Both the position numbers and the translations under genes were made by a program. A stretch of DNA of 64,000 bases, taken from the NCBI RefSeq assembly GCF_050920415.1, contig NZ_CP169309.1. The stretch is one strand, 5' to 3'. Position 1 is the first letter of the stretch; each line of letters begins with the position of its first letter. Of the stretch, positions 42,618-52,890 are shown one piece after another. The notes below the pieces were generated by a model. That model was not told the DNA's origin. It did no database searches and was given only the letters and a program-made list of their open reading frames with translations. This DNA is from Escherichia coli (GTDB taxonomy: Bacteria > Pseudomonadota > Gammaproteobacteria > Enterobacterales > Enterobacteriaceae).

Positions 42618-44465
42618 TTACCTGATTAATTGTTCCGCTTTCGATACGATTTGCGAGCTGGATCGCGCAGGCAGATCATAATTGTAAATATCTGTACGAT
42701 ACTGGGTACGACCATCTGCACCAACAAAGGCCGTCAGATAGAAGAGATTCACCGGAATCGACTGCCGAATATTGACGTAACGCGTATCGCCCTGCTTCAG
42801 CGCATCAGAAATACGTTTGTCATTCCAGCCTGCATCCTGCAACAGCATATTCGCCAGATCGGAAGCTTTATTCACTCGTACACAGCCTGAGCTCAATGCG
42901 CGTGTATCACGCTTGAACAGATTGTGGTTCGGCGTGTCATGCAAATAAATGGCCTCTGAACTCGGCATATTGAATTTATAGCGCCCCAGCGAGTTCCGTG
43001 GGCCTGGAGCCTGCTGGAAGCGGAACGGTAAATTCGAGGCCGTGATTGTAGACCAGTCAACCTGCCACGGATCAATCGCCTCCCTGCTGTTCCAACCGCG
43101 CATCACCGTATAGCCATGGCTTTCGAGATATCCCGGATCGTTGCGCACTTTCGGCAGAATATCTTTGCGTGCCAGAGTTGGTGGTACATTCCACGGCGGG
43201 TTTACCACCACGTTGTTAAGGGCACTGCTCATCATTGGCGTTTTGCGATCGGGGCGACCGACAATGACTCGCGAATCCAGCACCTGATTGCCGTTCTGAT
43301 AGTAGACCAGCGAATAGGCCGGAATGTTAACCATGATCCCGGTAGAAAGCTCTGTTGGCAGCAAGCGCAATCGCTGGATGTTGAGTGCCAACACGCCAGC
43401 ACGCTGGGCGGGCGTTACGTTTAACCAGTCACGCGTTGCCGGGCCAATAGCACCATCTGCCCCCAATCCTTGCCATGCCTGAAAACGTTTAACGGCTTCC
43501 ACCAGTTCATTATCGTAGGCGGCACGAACGACAGGCGCAGGTTTACTACGAGACGTAGTTTGCTTGTCCATCGGCTTAGTTTCTGCTGTTTCAACAGTAA
43601 CAGCGGATGGGCTGACTACCGCGTCAGTTGGCGTGTCATCGCCAGGTAGCGTAATTTTCGGCCCCCCGTCCAGCATGCCTGTACGCTGCAATATTTCGCG
43701 CAACGCCGGTACGTCGTTACTCCACTGCCCTGGGCGCAACGTTGCTTTGCCGGTCAGTTGGGGCCACGGTTTGGTGTCACTGAGTAAGGCCAGTAAAGAT
43801 TCATGCATCGCCGCATATTGCGGATGCTGCGGTGCCAGTCCTGCAACAAACGTCGGCAATTGACCTTTATCCAGCGCCAGCTGCCATTGGTTAATCACCG
43901 AGAGCGGCGGCGTGGAAAGCGCATAAGGTTTACTGCTGTATAACCAGCGAGTGCCTTTGACTGGAATATTTGCGATGAAATGGAGATAGCCCATCATCGC
44001 ATCAGAGAGCACCACATCGCGTGCCATCCCGTTAATACCAGGATCGGTCAGCAACTCTACCCATTTATTAAACTGCGGCTGGAAACCGGCAATCGCCACT
44101 TCTGCCAGCTGTTGCTGGAAGGCTTTAACAGCATCACGGTTTTCCCACATGGGTTGCATATCGCGTGCGGCATACAACAGTTGAAGCTGGTTAAGATAAA
44201 CCGGCTTATAGCCTGCAGGTAATTGAGATTCGATTTGCGTGCGGGCTTTTTCTGCCGCACCTTCAGGCAATGGCTGGATCCCCGCCATTATTGCCGTGGC
44301 CTGCGCCTGCGGCAGTGCCTCGCCCTGTTCGCTGACAGCCACCGGGCTGTCGCCAGGGATTACTTCAGGCTCATCGGCCTGAGCATTGAACAGTGGAGCG
44401 AATGTTACGGCCACGCACAAACTGATTGCCGACAGCCGACGACCACACATCATATTAAGCAACAT
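42618..44465 (-). CDS. ldtD: L,D-transpeptidase LdtD (YcbB)
   Basis: 615 aa with signal peptide; C-terminal YkuD-like region with catalytic-type Cys in SSGCVRV. Confidence 0.9.
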
Positions 44466-44687
44466 CCCTTGCCCCCTGTTTTTATCATACTCTGAATAGC
44501 CAGGCTGTTATTTTACGACTTGCCTGTACAACGCCAATACTCACGAAAGTATGACGAGCAAGCCTGTTACTCATCAGGCTTATCTTCAGTATATAAACGC
44601 CGATACGTTTTTACATAACCTAATGTAAAGAAGTTTAAAGAAAAGCGCGCCAGAATGTGGCACTTTTTTAGTGCAGAAACGGAGTTT

Positions 44688-44720
44688 TCAGAAACAGGAA
44701 AGGCGGCATCGCTGCCGCCT
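44688..44720 (-). terminator. probable terminator downstream of mukB
   Basis: hairpin aggcggcatcgctgccgcct immediately after the mukB stop, then a U-rich tract on the minus strand. Confidence 0.45.
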
Positions 44721-44725
44721 CAATC

Positions 44726-47700
44726 TTAACTCGCCTGGGAAGGCGCTTCGTCAGTTCCTGGAAGCGTTTCAGGGAGTTGCGGTGCAAAACCACGCAGACC
44801 GACTACGTGAACGTGTTCGGTATTCTGGAAGACTTTACGCACCAGTTTATAGGTGGTGCCTTTTTCCGGGCTGATATTTTCCGGCGCTGCGATGATGAGC
44901 TGCATTTGCAAACGCTCACACAATTCAAACAGCGTGGCGATGGAACGGGCATCCAGTCGCGCTGCTTCATCAAGGAACAGCAGACGGCAAGGAGAGATAT
45001 CTTTACCGCGCAAGCGGCGAGATTCATCTTCCCAACTCTGTACCACCATCACCAGAATCGACATACCGGTACCAATAGCCTCACCGGTCGACAATGCACC
45101 AGACTCCGCGCGCAACCAGCCATCGGAACCACGGTTAACCTCAACTTCCATTTCAAGATAGTTACGGTAATCCAGCAGTTCTTCACCGATGGTCTGCGGC
45201 GTGCGCTGCCCCATATCAATCTGCGGATTAAGGCGCTGATACAGTTTCGCCAGCGCTTCCGAGAAGGTCAGACGGTTGCTGTTAAACAGATCCTGATGTT
45301 GTTCGTGCTGTTCAGAGAGCACATCCAGCAGCATGGCGTGCGTTTCACGCACGTTCACGTTGAGGCGCACGCTGTTCACCTGACCGAACGATACGTTCTG
45401 CAAGCCCTGGTTGAGCATACGGATACGGTTCTGCTCGCGCTGAATAGTTTTACGGATGATGTTCGCCACGCTGCGGGAACTGATCGCCAGTTTCTGTTCG
45501 CGGGACGTTAACTCTTCAGTCAGACGGCTAAGTTCGATCTCCATCTGCTCGATAGCTTCAACCGGATCATCGGTACGAATAATATCCTGACGAATACGCT
45601 CGCGCAGATGCTGATAAACCGCCACGAAGAACTGAATTTTACGTTCCGGACGTTTTGGATCTTCCGACATACGCAGCACGTCGCGCAGATGTTCGTTATC
45701 CGCTACCGCGAGACGCAACGCACCCAACGCCTTATCCGACATGGAACGCAAATCATCAGCGGAGAGATAAGCCAGCTCACGACGGTGTAAGCGGCGCTCA
45801 ACACCGTTATCTTTCACCATGCGCATCACTGCACACCAGCCCGCTTTCGCGGTCACTACCTGCTCGCGCATCTCAAAGTAATCACGCTCCAGCTTGCGCA
45901 GTTTGCGGGTCAGGTTGTCCATCTCCGCTTCGCAGAAGGTAAGCGCTTTTTCCAGTTGGTTGCGACGTGAACGGTTATTGCTCAGCTGCGCATGTAACTC
46001 ATCACGGCGAATACGCGCCCGCTCTTCTGCCCCGCTATCAGCACGCACGCCGATATCCTGCAATTCACGTTGCAGATCGTTGAGTAGCTCTTTTTTGGTG
46101 TCATACGAACTTTTCAGCGAAGCCAGTACCTGATTGTACTGACTTAACTGCGCGGCGTGTCCGCGCAACGCTTCACGAGCGCGGGTACGCTCCGCTTCCG
46201 CCTGTTCCAGACGTTCACGCAGTTTTTCGTTGAGATCGCTGTTACCGCTAAGCATTTCTGCCGAGTCAGAGTAGCTAAAGTGCGCACGACGCTGCACCAC
46301 TTCCGTCAGGGCAAACGCCTGCTGACGGGCATCGCGCTGCATCTGCTGAGAGTACGCGTAATCTTCTTTTAACTGTTCGAACTGTTCCGGGTCACTCTGC
46401 AATACCGAAACGATCGGTTCCAGTTTCGCCAGTTGATTACCGAACTGCTGAACAAAACGCGCGGCTTCCTGGGCTTCATCCAGACGTTCGCGGATTTCAT
46501 CGACGCGATCCGCCAGGCTGTCATCAGCCAACAGGTTGAGACGCGGCAGAATGCGGTTCAGCGCCGTAACGCCTTCTTTCGCCTGCTCAAACTGAATACG
46601 CTGCTGCTGGTTATCATTTTCATGATTACTCAACGCCCGCTCCAGTTCGACGCGACGGCTGTTCAGTTGACGGATTTCGGCTTCCGGATCAGACTCAAAC
46701 GCCACCGCCAGATGGCTGCCGATAAAGCGGCTGAACGCCTGATGCAGACGCTGGGTTTTCTGTACATCAAAGGAGAGCGTGGCGAAGCGTTCGGAAAGCA
46801 CTTCACGCTCGGCATGGAGGCTTTCGATGCGGCTTTCGCGCGCCGCGCGTCCAAACAGCGGCACTTCCGGGAAACGTGAATAACGCCACTGACGATCGGC
46901 GATTTTCACCACTACCGCTTTTTCCAGCTCATCAACGCTGAACACGCTGTCATCGAATGACTGCGGATCCCCTTCGATCAGATAGAGATCTTCCGGGCAA
47001 TCGGTCAAGCCTTCCAGGTGTTCGGTTACCTGTGACAGATCTGGCACCACGATGGCGTGGCGTGACGGGCCATACAGCGCCGAGAAGTACGGCGCATCTT
47101 CCAGGCTAACATCGTCATAAATTTCTGACAGCAACACGCCGCCAAAACGCTCCGCCAGCGCATTCAGACGCTGGTCTTCAGAACCACCTGGCTGGCTTAA
47201 ACGTTCGATCTCTTCATCGACGGCGTTTTTGCGCGCGCCTACTTCATCGCGTTCAACAATCGCCTCGCGCTCACGCTCCAGCAACTGTTGCAGAAATTCG
47301 GTGACATCCTGGCTTGAGGAGAATTCTTCGCCGCACTGTTCGCTCAACTGGTTGAGACTGTTTTGCGCTGCCAGCCAAACCGGCGCACGCTGCATCAAAC
47401 TCTGAATGCGAGACTGCAGCTGTTCCTGCTCCTGGCGCAGTGCCATACGCTCTTCGCGGGCGTTAGACACGCTATTGGAAAGAGAGGCAATGCGCGCTTC
47501 CAGCTCCTGATGCAGAGCTTCCAGTTCATCAATATCAAAATTCTTGCCCTGACGTTTGCAGAAATCTGCCAGCAGACGCTCAGCTTCTTGCTGTTCGCGC
47601 AGACGCTGTTCCAGTTCGCTTAAGCGCATTCGCAACGGCTGAACCTGCTCTGCCAGGTGACGCTGATCGACCCCTTCGCGCAGCAGTTCGCGAGCGACAT

Positions 47701-49186
47701 CCCACGCCTCGTTACGCGCCAGCGGGCCGTTGATTGCCACCACCAGCTGATAAGCCTGCTCAAACTGGCTGTGCGCGGTTTGCGCCATGCTCATTTTCTG
47801 CTCAAGAGAGAGCATTTTTTCAGTCGCTTCCAGCTCTTTCGCCTGGAAGGTTTCCAGCCATTCGGCGGCGCTGTCGGCGGTTAAGTCCGGCAGATGGCAC
47901 AGTTCTTTGGCACGATTAAGCGCAGCAATCGCCTGGTTATACTGGATCGCGCGCGTTTGCTGGACGTCCAGCGCCTGCTGGTAGTCAGCAAGCTGGCTTT
48001 TCAGCTCGTCCACTTCCAGTTCGGCAGCTTCCGCACGAGCCTCATTCTCTTCCTGGCGTTCGATGGCTTCTGCCACCACTTCGTTTTGCTCTTCCAGACG
48101 GATCTGCAGCTCATCGAGATCCGCTTCGTAGCGTTCGATCTTCTCCTGCTGACGCAGTGCGGTTTGCACCAGGTTCAGGTGATCGCTGGCCGCCTGATAA
48201 TCCGCTTCCAGATCGCCTTCGGCACCGTTGTGCTCTGCCAGTTCACGCGCCATATCGACGTGTTTGTACTGCTCAGCCGCCAGTTGCTGACGCGAAGTGT
48301 GAAGCTCACGACGAAACTCCAGCGCTTTATCCAGGTGAACACGGCGCTCGTTGGCGTGGCGCATGTAGTCCGCCGCCACGTAGTTAGTCGCTTCGCTGAT
48401 CAGATGCTTGAACAAGTCACGGTCAGACTGGGTAACACGAATCGCTTCCAGCGTCATACGGTTTTCACGCAGCGCCGCTTCCATGTCCTGAAACGCTTTG
48501 CGCACGCCGCTATTTTCTGGCAACAGGTAGTCGCGCAGAGAACGGGTGATGGCGCTGGAAATCCCGCCGTACAGCGAAGCTTCAATCAGACGATAGAATT
48601 TACTACGATCAGACGCTGAGCGCAGACGACGTGCGATGATGCCCAGATCGAACATCAGCGAGTGGTAATCGGTAATGGAGTTGAACTGCTTAAACTGCAC
48701 GCCTTCCATCGCTTCGAGCTTGTCTTTCAGCTCGTTAAGCGGGAGCACGCGCGCCTGACGTTCATTCAGAGTTTCGGTCACCAGTTGTGTCGGCTGCACC
48801 GACATCGGCAAGCCCTGAATGGCAAATGGTTTGATATCAACTTTACGATCGCGCCCGGCAACCTGTTGCAGACGCACGCCGACCACCACGCGCTGATGGC
48901 GCGAGTTAATGGTGTCGAGCATCGAATAGCAGACACCCGCTTTCAGCTTACCGTGCAGACCTTTATCGCGCGAACCGCTGGTGGCCCCGGCTTCCGTGGT
49001 GTTACGGAAATGCAGCAGGGTCAGGTCGGGGATCAGCGCCGTAACGAACGCCGCCATGGTAGTAGATTTACCCGCACCGTTACCACCGGAGAGCGTCGTA
49101 ACCAGCTCATCGAGGTCAAAAGTTCGGGCAAAAAAGCCGTTCCAGTTAATCAGCGTCAGTGAGCGAAATTTACCGCGTTCAATCAT
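44726..49186 (-). CDS. mukB: chromosome partition protein MukB (SMC-like condensin)
   Basis: 1486 aa with N-terminal Walker [10 protein letters not shown] and long coiled-coil-type sequence. Confidence 0.95.
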
Positions 49187-49890
49187 TATTCTTCCTCTCC
49201 GCTATCTGGCTGATTCTCTTCGGTTTCATCGTTGAGTTGCAGATGATTTTCAATCGGCATTGCTTCGCCATCACGAATCAGGCGACGCTGTGCTTCACGG
49301 GGATCGTCGCCAGCACGCACATCGGCTCCGAAGCGGAACACCGATTCGGTAATGCGGAACTTGCTGCTGTCGTGGCCCATAAACCACACCATGCCTAAAC
49401 GACGCAGACGGTTGAGCGAAGAACGTACTTTCTCCTGCAACTTCTGCCGGTCAACGTCTGAACCGGTTGAACGGTTGTTCACCAGTTTCAGCAGTTTCGC
49501 TTCATCGGCCAGGGTGAGCAGTTCATCGTACAGTTCCTGCTGGGTGAAAATCCCCTCATTCGCCAGCCGTTCCGGGCTGAGATAAAGATAACAGAGGATT
49601 TTCCCGACCATCATATCCAGTTCCGACAAGACGGAACGAGGGATAATAGTGGTGGAACGTGGGCGTAAATAGAAGAACCCCTCCGGTGCGCGAATAAGCT
49701 CAACGTTATAACGCGCGTAAAATTCTTCCAGATATTCCTGAAAATCCATCAGGAATGCATGATTATCCAGTTCGTCAAGGCCAATATGGCGGCCTGAACG
49801 TAAGGCGCTATCCAGCGCCGGAAATAACGGATTCGCCAGCGCCTGCGCCAGCTTAACCGGCATCACTTGTTCAATATTTGTCGATGACAT
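49186..49890 (-). CDS. mukE: chromosome partition protein MukE
   Basis: 234 aa from [16 protein letters not shown]...; 1-bp overlap with mukB (TAATG) and 20-bp overlap with mukF; start choice moderately certain. Confidence 0.85.
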
Positions 49891-51193
49891 GCGCCTGTAC
49901 CTTGGCTCCGTAATCATTAATCGGCTGCCATTTCGCTGGCAGTCCGGTGAAATCTGCTTGCGCTACGCCAAGACGTACCGCCTGATCAATAACAATGCGC
50001 GCAACGTCAAAGTGACGTGCACGCGGATACTGTGACAGATATTCGCGTACCACCAGACCAAGATCCAACGGCACTTGTCTGGTTTTGTACACGGCAAGTT
50101 GTTCTTCGATGATCGCCGCCAGCTGTTCGCGGATCTCGTTAAACTCTTCGTACTCCAGATCCTCAGGAAGTTCCCCAGTCACCTCTTCATCGCGCAGTGC
50201 CATCTCTTCGTCACGCATATCCAGCAGACGATCGGCATTGGCATAAGTTAGCGCCCACGGTTCATCAAAATAGGTTTGTACCGACTGACGTAACCGCTGA
50301 GCAAAGACGCGGTTTTTATCCATATCGATAGCGGTACGAATAAATTTGTGTACGTGGCGGTCGTAGCCAATCCATAAGTCGATGGATTGCTGGCCCCAGC
50401 TGATAATACGGTCAAGTTTGCTTTGCAGATCGAACACCAGACGATCGACGAAATGCAGATCATCATGAGTCATCGTCGCATCCTGAATGCGTAACAGATT
50501 AGCCTGCAATTTATCACCTGCCGCTTCCAGCGTATCCTGCAATTCACGCAGCGTTCCGGAAGTTTCCGAAAGCAACAATTCGCAGCTGGAAATCGCCGCC
50601 CGCCAGTCTTTGTTCAGCAACTGGGCGATATCATCTTTCACCTGCTGCTGCTGTTCGTCCATCAGACGTTGCGTCAGGTCGATGCTGTCGAAAATTTCTG
50701 CTACCGAATATTTCAGTGGCGCATAGACATTACGGTGCCAGTGAAACTCATCACCGCCCTCTTCGGCGGCATCTGCCGCGCGTTTCAGTTCGCCCGCCAC
50801 AATCGACAACTGCATAGAAAGGCGCAGCGTCGAAAACTCGCGCTGACGGATGTAGTAATCGGTAATACCGATGCCAAGCGGCGTCAGACGGTAAATTGCG
50901 TTCCCTTCAGCCTGCTCGCTGGTAAAGCGGTTCAGCAGACGTTGACGCACCATGTCGTTGATCGCGTTGTTGGCGCGCACGCCGATGGTTTCGCTGGTTT
51001 GCTCAAACGCATCACTCACATGGCGGAATGCATCCACCAGCTCGCCTTCACTCATCTCACCATCCAGACGCTCGCCGTTCAGCGTGGCAACTGCCAGCAG
51101 AAAAGAGAGTCGGTCTACCGGCAGCGAGATGGAGAAGTCATTTTTTCTGGCCCAGGCAACCAGTTCGGGGACTGTCTGGGAAAATTCACTCAT
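49871..51193 (-). CDS. mukF: chromosome partition protein MukF (kleisin)
   Basis: 440 aa [22 protein letters not shown]... Confidence 0.95.
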
Positions 51194-51975
51194 ACTTTAT
51201 CCTTGCTCTGCGGTTTGCGCGCGGTGACATGAATATAACGCCCCAGGGTAATATACGGTTCCTGACGGCAATAACGCGTTTCTAATTCAAGTAATGCTTC
51301 ATAGCAGTCGCGCTGCTGGTGCTTCTCGCGCAGGTAATCATGAAACACGCGAACGCCGGTCTTACCCATAATTTGCCAACCAGCTTCTTCCAGCCACAGA
51401 TAAACCTGCGCCGGGTCGCGTGGATAATCTGGCGAAAGCGTCCGTTTTTTCTTTTTCGGCATTCCCGCCTGCACGTAATCAAAATTCCCGGCGACCATGT
51501 TATGCATCAGCAAGCCGTGCGCATTGTAGAACATTAACGACAACACACCGCCTGGACGTAACACTGACCACAGGGTCTGCAATACGCTGCGGGGATCGGC
51601 CACCCACTCGAGCACCGCATGGAACAATATCAGATCAACGGGCGTTTCCAAATGCGAAGCAACATCCTGAGCGGCGCAATGTATAAATTGCATGTTGTCG
51701 CTCACACCTTTTGCTTCTGCCGCCTGTTTTGCGCGGTCGATCATCTGCGCTGAAAGATCGCATAAAATGACCTGATGCCCACGCTCGGCCATTTTGATTG
51801 CGGTCTGCCCTTCTCCACCGCCAGCATCCAGCACACGCAGTTTTTGCGAGCCCATTTCCGCCAGCACGCGATCGAGATCCTGCCACAGAATAGCCTGTCG
51901 AAGCTGCCCTTTGGTGGTGCCGTAAATGTTACGGGAAAACTTTTCCGCAATATCATCAAAATTGCGATCCTGCAT
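51190..51975 (-). CDS. cmoM: SAM-dependent tRNA methyltransferase CmoM (SmtA)
   Basis: 261 aa from [13 protein letters not shown]...; LDAGGGEG methyltransferase motif; 4-bp overlap with mukF. Confidence 0.9.
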
Positions 51976-52110
51976 TGCTTTCTCCACCGGTTGGCTAAGA
52001 CGTTTTCTGATAAAGACGCTATTTTGTCACAGCCACGGCGAGAATGAACCCGTCTGGTGTAATATCGCTGGCGATCCCTTGCTATATGGTCAAAAAAGGA
52101 ACCAGAAAGG

Positions 52111-52890
52111 ATGCTTTTTACACTGAAAAAAGTGATTGGCAATATGTTGCTGCCACTTCCGCTGATGTTGCTGATTATTGGCGCTGGCCTGGCGCTGCTG
52201 TGGTTTAGCCGTTTTCAAAAAACCGGGAAGATTTTTATTAGCATTGGGTGGCTGGCGCTCTTGTTATTGAGTTTGCAACCGATAGCCGACCGCCTGCTGC
52301 GTCCCATCGAAAGCACCTATCCGACATGGAATAATTCGCAAAAAGTGGACTATATCGTGGTGCTCGGAGGTGGTTATACCTGGAACCCGCAGTGGGCACC
52401 GAGCTCTAATTTAATCAATAACAGTCTGCCACGCCTGAATGAAGGTATCCGCTTATGGCGCGAAAATCCGGGATCAAAACTGATCTTCACGGGAGGCGTA
52501 GCAAAAACCAATACGGTGAGTACAGCCGAAGTAGGTGCCCGAGTTGCGCAATCGCTGGGCGTGCCGCGCGAGCAAATTATCACTCTGGATTTGCCAAAAG
52601 ATACCGAAGAAGAAGCTGCGGCAGTGAAACAGGCAATTGGTGACGCACCTTTCCTGCTGGTGACCTCCGCATCACATCTGCCGCGGGCGATGATCTTTTT
52701 TCAGCAGGAAGGGTTAAATCCGCTACCAGCCCCGGCGAATCAGTTGGCCATCGACTCGCCGCTTAATCCGTGGGAACGAGCTATCCCTTCTCCAGTCTGG
52801 TTAATGCATAGCGATCGTGTTGGATATGAAACGCTTGGCCGCATCTGGCAGTGGCTGAAAGGTTCGTCAGGCGAGCCACGGCAAGAGTGA
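52111..52890 (+). CDS. elyC: envelope biogenesis factor ElyC (DUF218)
   Basis: 259-aa ORF with N-terminal transmembrane segments. Confidence 0.9.
   Translation: MLFTLKKVIGNMLLPLPLMLLIIGAGLALLWFSRFQKTGKIFISIGWLALLLLSLQPIADRLLRPIESTYPTWNNSQKVDYIVVLGGGYTWNPQWAPSSNLINNSLPRLNEGIRLWRENPGSKLIFTGGVAKTNTVSTAEVGARVAQSLGVPREQIITLDLPKDTEEEAAAVKQAIGDAPFLLVTSASHLPRAMIFFQQEGLNPLPAPANQLAIDSPLNPWERAIPSPVWLMHSDRVGYETLGRIWQWLKGSSGEPRQE

Follow-up and report, generated by a model that had tools for sequence, protein, structure and literature searches.

Neighboring genes that run in the same direction most often, and by a wide margin, overlap by 4 or 1 nucleotides (nt), and experiments in Escherichia coli have demonstrated that these overlaps couple translation by termination-reinitiation; coupling drops steeply with distance, and such overlaps are enriched among the genes for subunits of heteromeric complexes (Huber et al. 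2019, 2023; PMC6728339, PMC10666635). The smtA-mukF-mukE-mukB operon, which encodes a tRNA methyltransferase and the three subunits of the condensin MukBEF, was described in 1996 by Yamanaka et al., as cited in PMC4255302 and PMC3871593. SmtA has since been renamed CmoM, the enzyme that methylates cmo5U34 to mcmo5U34 in tRNA Ala1, Ser1, Pro3, and Thr4 (PMC4737166). Outside the enterobacteria, a smtA-mukFEB operon has been predicted in Vibrio fischeri (PMC3948606). Here, we deal with the copy of this operon carried by a 64,000-nt stretch of E. coli DNA (contig NZ_CP169309.1 of assembly GCF_050920415.1), referred to below as the window, and above all with the codon at which its third gene, mukE, is started and with the overlaps that chain the four genes together.

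The operon occupies positions 44726-51975 of the window, where its open reading frames (ORFs) and junctions, read base by base, give four genes running in the same direction, all of them on the minus strand, a point that the original prediction had left unmentioned. In E. coli K-12, the corresponding operon (b0921-b0924) consists of the same genes in the same order, with the same product lengths (261, 440, 234, and 1486 amino acids) and the same overlaps (4, 20, and 1 nt), so that nothing structural differs. Gene identity was accepted upon a match to an NCBIfam equivalog profile above the curated cut-off, which was obtained for CmoM (NF008264, 504 bits against a cut-off of 366, aligned over 1-261 of 261), MukF (NF003615, 845 bits against 407, 1-440 of 440), MukE (NF003602, 412 bits against 250), and MukB (NF003422, 2646 bits against 699, 1-1484 aligned against 1-1485 of 1486). 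For cmoM, mukF, and mukB, the alignment of the product includes the first position of the profile, which confirms the starts of these three genes. The same coordinates and overlaps are annotated in the K-12 MG1655 record NC_000913.3 and, by the Prokaryotic Genome Annotation Pipeline (PGAP), in E. coli MFDS1022581, a strain identical to the window over the 7.5-kb operon region. The identities, order, and coordinates put forward in the original prediction are therefore borne out by the profile matches and by both annotations, and with ATG 49890 taken as the start of mukE, as was done there, its overlaps of 4, 20, and 1 nt are exact.

Taken together, the region is best explained as the chromosomal cmoM(smtA)-mukF-mukE-mukB operon of E. 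coli, with mukE initiated mainly at ATG 49890, a reading to which we assign a probability of roughly 0.85. As a discovery, it carries little weight: operon, gene order, and overlaps are textbook E. coli annotation, already present in the K-12 reference, and the description is correct but ordinary. That the four genes form an operon is taken from the literature, and what the present analysis supplies is their identities, coordinates, and overlaps, along with the degree to which overlaps and initiation regions are conserved. The operon region matched 5,425 of 5,426 complete E. coli genomes, with a best match in each that is at least 95% identical and bears the same gene names. It should be noted that over positions 44600-52100 of the window only one of the 5,426 genomes is 100% identical, that of MFDS1022581 (food, Korea); the next-best genome reaches 99.0% over the operon, with the remaining best matches in the band of 95-99% identity. 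With a single perfect match and the rest at or below 99.0%, the window represents a sparsely sampled E. coli lineage.

The part of the operon on which annotations have disagreed is the start of mukE. Two versions of the gene, encoding 225 and 234 amino acids, are in circulation, and both occur in deposited structures: the MukE chain of PDB 3EUH has 234 residues, aligned over 1-234, and PDB 7V8P and 3RPU contain the form starting at Met-10. In K-12, where the ATGs of the 234- and 225-residue forms lie at 975622 and 975649, the accession of MukE has reached version 2, a sign that the sequence, probably its start, was revised; the mukF/mukE junction sequence in the window is the same as in K-12. 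Three in-frame ATG codons come into question, at 49917, 49890, and 49863 (Table 1). To compare them, the 80 closest Enterobacteriaceae loci, sampled at the species level, were assembled, and conservation is counted over 81 loci; more distant lineages were reached by a representative search and by look-ups of the encoding contigs. The strength of Shine-Dalgarno (SD) elements is given as the energy of the duplex with the anti-SD sequence.

ATG 49890 and the 20-nt overlap that it creates with mukF are found in all 81 loci, and the overlap recurs in Photorhabdus, Rahnella, Erwinia, and the more distant locus L089. Upstream of this codon lie two SD-like elements, a GGAG 14 nt away (-5.8 kcal/mol) and an AAGGU about 8 nt away (-3.9 kcal/mol), both embedded in the 3' end of mukF. 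A further observation concerns synonymous positions in mukF, the constraint on which was measured as the entropy of third codon positions in the last 15 codons against 277 background codons of the same gene. Third positions are invariant in 11 of the last 15 codons versus 2 of the 277 (Fisher p=4e-15), the mean entropy is 0.14 bit versus 0.98 bit, and in the background third positions of low entropy never occur in runs longer than 1. The frozen block spans about -40 to +20 around ATG 49890, reaching the mukF stop, and in the mukE frame synonymous variation returns at codon 11, right after ATG 49863. The start of mukF, which is undisputed, shows an invariant AAGGA followed by about 10-11 invariant first codons. 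Given that it carries the same signature, the pattern around ATG 49890 is that of a genuine initiation region in this operon.

Loci outside the close comparison set point in the same direction. L089, whose MukE is 60% identical to that of the window, retains a cmoM-like methyltransferase gene, overlaps of 8, 20, and 7 nt at the three junctions, and both AAGGT and ATGTCATCGA. Codon 10 of its MukE is CCG (Pro) where E. coli has Met-10, and other start codons are absent nearby, so that the overlapped ATG is the only workable mukE start there. In two low-GC lineages, L082 and L085, mukF and mukE do not overlap and are separated by spacers of 34 and 85 nt with a separate SD. The MukE proteins of these two loci, like those of other distant homologs, nevertheless have 10-12 residues before the KL...FP.LD motif, a length similar to that of the 234-residue form of E. 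coli, and none of them has a Met where Met-10 stands in E. coli; P0121, P0126, P0133, and P0135 are four such homologs. ATG 49890 is favored by the combination of conservation, synonymous constraint, SD pairing, L089, and the N-terminal extensions of distant homologs, and judging from these comparisons, it is very probably both the ancestral and the main start of mukE. The choice made for mukE in the original prediction is thus supported by comparative evidence. Such support is useful for annotation, for the design of constructs, and for recoding designs that have to cope with dual-coded stretches.

Table 1. Features of the cmoM-mukF-mukE-mukB operon and its junctions (window positions; SD energies in kcal/mol; aa, amino acids)
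Feature	Position	Strand	Remarks
cmoM (smtA), tRNA cmo5U34 methyltransferase	51190..51975	-	261 aa, ATG at 51975
mukF, kleisin subunit of MukBEF	49871..51193	-	440 aa
mukE, KITE subunit of MukBEF	49186..49890	-	234 aa from ATG 49890
mukB, SMC-like ATPase of MukBEF	44726..49186	-	1486 aa
GGAG, SD for cmoM	51982..51985	-	5-6 nt before ATG; duplex -6.4
AAGGA, SD for mukF	51200..51204	-	within cmoM 3' end; duplex -5.2
ATGA, mukF start overlapping cmoM stop	51190..51193	-	4 nt; context gtATGAgt
In-frame ATG 49917	49915..49917	-	243-aa MukE, longest ORF; 47-nt overlap with mukF
Invariant mukE initiation region	49891..49915	-	inside mukF 3' end; GGAG 49906-49909, AAGGT 49899-49903
In-frame ATG 49890	49890	-	234-aa MukE; 20-nt overlap with mukF
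mukF/mukE overlap, dual-coded	49871..49890	-	20 nt; mukE in +1 frame relative to mukF; mukF TGA 49873-49871
GTGATG, alternative in-frame starts	49861..49866	-	GTG 49866; ATG 49863, the old 225-aa annotation; 7 nt past mukF stop
In-frame ATG 49863	49863	-	225-aa MukE; 7-nt gap after mukF
GGAGAGGAAG, purine-rich SD region for mukB	49191..49200	-	codes for acidic MukE C-terminal tail; duplex -6.6
TAATG, mukE stop and mukB start	49184..49188	-	1-nt overlap at base 49186; context gaa gaa TAATG att
Putative terminator hairpin with T-rich tail	44700..44721	-	9 pairs, 6 G-C; begins 5 nt past mukB stop; consensus scan

The cmoM/mukF junction was scored in 78 loci: in 34, the cmoM stop and the mukF ATG overlap by 8 nt, in 32 they are separated by a gap of 3 nt, and in only 11 (Escherichia and a few others) do they share 4 nt as in the window. 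The mukF start is displaced in one locus, and apart from this case the position of the cmoM stop relative to the mukF ATG always stays between -3 and +8 nt. The AAGGA element of mukF, compared in 77 species, is invariant whichever frame cmoM ends in. What is conserved here is proximity and the SD rather than the overlap itself. The C-terminal tail of CmoM (positions 51190-51215, minus strand; loci L002-L081) is accordingly read in all three frames across the Enterobacteriaceae, and its last few residues appear to be unconstrained as protein. The mukE/mukB junction is TAATG in 79 of 81 loci and ATGA in the remaining 2, and the 1-nt overlap is present also in the distant loci L082 and L085. Judged by their conservation at the three junctions, the overlaps exceed what chance would produce. 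The SD region of mukB is at the same time the coding sequence of the acidic end of MukE. As a side observation, some distant MukE homologs (P0126, P0130, P0133, and P0136; locus L084, 798-2303) are 450-575 amino acids long owing to very long, extremely acidic C-terminal tails of low complexity, compared with about 15 acidic residues in the tail of E. coli MukE.

Beyond the Enterobacterales, the order mukF-mukE-mukB is the same as in E. coli in the other gammaproteobacterial clusters compared (V. fischeri, L082, L085, and L089), and the overlap of mukE with mukB is 1 nt in L082 and L085 and 7 nt in L089. Many other clusters resemble that of E. coli in having a methyltransferase gene upstream of mukFEB, and cmoM is linked to mukFEB outside the Enterobacterales too, in V. 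fischeri (PMC3948606) and L089. The low-GC lineages L082 and L085 differ, in that cmoM is missing upstream and a spacer stands in place of the mukF/mukE overlap.

In the explanation favored here, a single transcript would run from upstream of cmoM to the hairpin just past mukB, encoding CmoM and then MukF, MukE, and MukB. The start of each downstream gene lies inside the gene before it or on that gene's last bases, and each has an SD of its own that is embedded in the upstream coding sequence, with mukE initiated mainly at ATG 49890 to give the 234-residue protein. Ribosomes translating the upstream gene would probably prevent the following initiation region from closing, or would themselves re-initiate at it, and coupling of this kind may help to hold the condensin subunits in fixed proportion, the expected ratio of MukB:MukE:MukF being roughly 2:4:2. 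With overlap as its basis, translational coupling at these junctions is a plausible and reasonable hypothesis. The spacings of cmoM/mukF (-4, ATGA) and mukE/mukB (-1, TAATG) are the two commonest among the coupled ATGA/TGATG pairs of Huber et al., and MukF, MukE, and MukB, which belong to a single complex, are gene products of the kind for which such overlaps are enriched; CmoM, in contrast, is not a complex subunit. Accordingly, mukE/mukB seems to fit the coupled class well and cmoM/mukF less well.

Several points weigh against this account. The 20-nt overlap of mukF and mukE, present in 81 of 81 loci, falls outside the experimentally tested class, and because the start has SD-like elements of its own, coupling is no more likely there than de novo initiation. 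The form of the cmoM/mukF overlap is not conserved, with the 4-nt version in 11 of 78 loci, and since CmoM is not part of the condensin, coupling at this junction lacks an obvious stoichiometric rationale. The RNA around the mukF/mukE junction folds no better than shuffled sequences (z=-1.0); because it shows no significant structure, coupling by unfolding has no visible substrate. In the literature that could be accessed, reporter or premature-stop experiments on these three junctions were not found, nor were data on the MukE start from start-site profiling or from N-terminal peptides; the main text of a Ribo-RET preprint makes no mention of muk. Separately, an RNA structure or riboswitch-like element was considered for the frozen mukF/mukE junction and rejected, given the z score of -1.0 and the absence of any Rfam match in 44000-52600; the junction varies too little for covariation analysis.

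An alternative reading sees the overlaps as a consequence of genome compaction that has no coupling function, each gene being initiated independently at its own SD and relative protein amounts being set by the strength of the sites. Every downstream gene does have an SD-like element with a reasonable duplex energy, inhibitory structure is not visible at mukF/mukE, the cmoM/mukF junction drifts among three frames, and in distant lineages 34-85 nt lie between mukF and mukE. Against independent initiation stand junction distances that stay within -20 to +3 nt across the Enterobacterales and a 1-nt mukE/mukB overlap that is kept even in distant lineages, as well as the experimental finding that 4- and 1-nt overlaps couple translation in E. 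coli and the enrichment of such overlaps in complexes (PMC6728339, PMC10666635). Compaction without coupling is thus a possible but doubtful account of the locus.

A different question is whether ATG 49890 is the sole start of mukE. A paper of 2026 on recoded genomes reports that the E. coli strain Syn61, from which the serine codons TCA and TCG were removed, keeps 'forbidden' codons in the essential gene mukE because the coordinates of the gene had changed between annotations, and that Syn61-delta-3, which lacks the tRNAs for TCA and TCG, is viable (PMC13287592). In the window and in K-12, the 234-residue MukE opens with ATG TCA TCG ACA (49879-49890, minus strand), and the same bases in the mukF frame read GTC ATC GAC, which need no recoding. 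We infer that the forbidden codons of that paper are codons 2 and 3 of mukE, which the older annotation apparently led recoding projects to leave in an essential gene. Given that Syn61-delta-3 lives without the tRNAs for these codons, some functional MukE must arise by a route on which they are not decoded, the simplest being initiation at ATG 49863, which hints that this codon can work as a start in the Syn61 derivative.

From this follows a scheme of dual initiation, in which most MukE would be made from ATG 49890 via its own SD and a fraction from ATG 49863 via re-initiation, giving isoforms of 234 and 225 amino acids. Both codons are invariant in the 81 species, the near-invariant zone that begins at about -40 runs through the second ATG and ends exactly there, and the mukF stop is flanked by the two starts, at a distance of 17 nt from the first, upstream of it, and 7 nt from the second, downstream; the viability of the Syn61 derivative with unreadable codons 2 and 3 would also be most simply explained by a second start (PMC13287592). 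Nevertheless, an invariant zone of about 10 codons also follows the mukF start, where a second ATG is absent, so that the zone needs no second start; Met-10 may be conserved for structural reasons, and L089 does without it. No experimental evidence for two MukE isoforms was found. Dual initiation is therefore regarded as unlikely, although it deserves to be kept in mind, and somewhat less likely still is its fuller version, in which the 234-residue form is made de novo and the 225-residue form by re-initiation after the mukF UGA, and which would explain the survival of the Syn61 derivative. An add-on that is more speculative again is that tRNA methylation by CmoM could bias the ratio of the isoforms, as codons 2-4 of mukE (UCA UCG ACA) are read by tRNA-Ser1 and tRNA-Thr4, both CmoM substrates (PMC4737166). 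This link may be a coincidence, because codon 3 is TTG (Leu) in 47 of 80 species and the stretch is dual-coded with mukF.

Further from the evidence is the original annotation, according to which mukE would start only at ATG 49863, by re-initiation after the mukF UGA across a spacer of 7 nt and with no overlap. Some observations do speak for it and hence against ATG 49890: no start codon lies closer to the mukF stop than ATG 49863, and ribosomes that re-initiate favor the nearest start (review PMC12548453); the 225-residue MukE is structurally competent, crystallizing as such (PDB 7V8P) and in complex (3RPU); and Syn61 was built without recoding of the TCA and TCG codons 2 and 3, with a tRNA-deleted derivative that lives (PMC13287592). 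In addition, the codon is conserved in 81 of 81 Enterobacteriaceae loci, often with a GTG before it. On the other hand, an SD for it is essentially absent (-0.2 kcal/mol), and the frozen synonymous block is centered on ATG 49890, with variation resuming directly after ATG 49863. L089 has Pro at that codon and yet keeps the overlap and AAGGT, distant homologs retain the N-terminal extension without a Met there, and the current K-12 and PGAP annotations as well as the 234-residue chain of PDB 3EUH use the upstream start. An exclusive start at ATG 49863 is consequently improbable.

Least credible by far is a start at ATG 49917, the first ATG of the mukE ORF, for which an equivalent 249-residue MukE is annotated in a Photorhabdus asymbiotica record (P0074; locus L086, 3001-3750): the codon is ACG in 16 of 81 loci and has essentially no SD (-1.8 kcal/mol), the substitutions of Photorhabdus in this stretch are synonymous for mukF and non-synonymous in the 243-residue mukE frame, and the MukE family profile sets in only about 11 residues further on, with the PDB chains likewise starting downstream. 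The longest-ORF start was therefore rejected. The rule behind it mis-calls mukE in P. asymbiotica as well, where the 249-residue protein is opened at a non-conserved upstream ATG and a spurious 47-nt overlap results. A programmed +1 frameshift at UAU-UGA that would fuse MukF to MukE, considered since mukE lies in the +1 frame, was likewise rejected by inspection, because UAU in the P site cannot re-pair at AUU, a prfB-like slippery context is lacking, and an ATG equipped with an SD is conserved.

A further observation at this junction is that ACA triplets occur 7-8 nt upstream of both candidate ATGs, 49890 and 49863 (49896-49898 and 49864-49870, minus strand). In a table of the MazF regulon, mukE is entered with a cleaved ACA that lies 7 nt from the start of the gene (PMC5001579); as the numbering could refer to either ATG, this entry was left out of the evidence.

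At the 5' end of the operon, the longest cmoM ORF opens at GTG 51987, where an SD is absent (+0.4 kcal/mol), and the GGAG element instead precedes the ATG of the 261-residue protein. A consensus scan upstream of cmoM found no sigma-70-like promoter, and MukBEF levels have been controlled by replacing the promoter upstream of smtA (PMC7163298). The intergenic region between elyC and cmoM (51976-52110, minus strand), aligned as 77 regions from as many species, contains the conserved blocks TTTTTTGACCATA, GATATTACACCAGA, and TGTGACAAAATAGCG; the last of these, about 50 nt upstream of the cmoM ATG, could be a candidate extended -10 promoter element. At the other end, the hairpin after mukB is terminator-like and may act as the terminator. 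Within mukB, two antisense ORFs are open on the plus strand, at 44777-45511 (244 amino acids) and 47894-48619 (241 amino acids), and are probably a by-product of codon composition.

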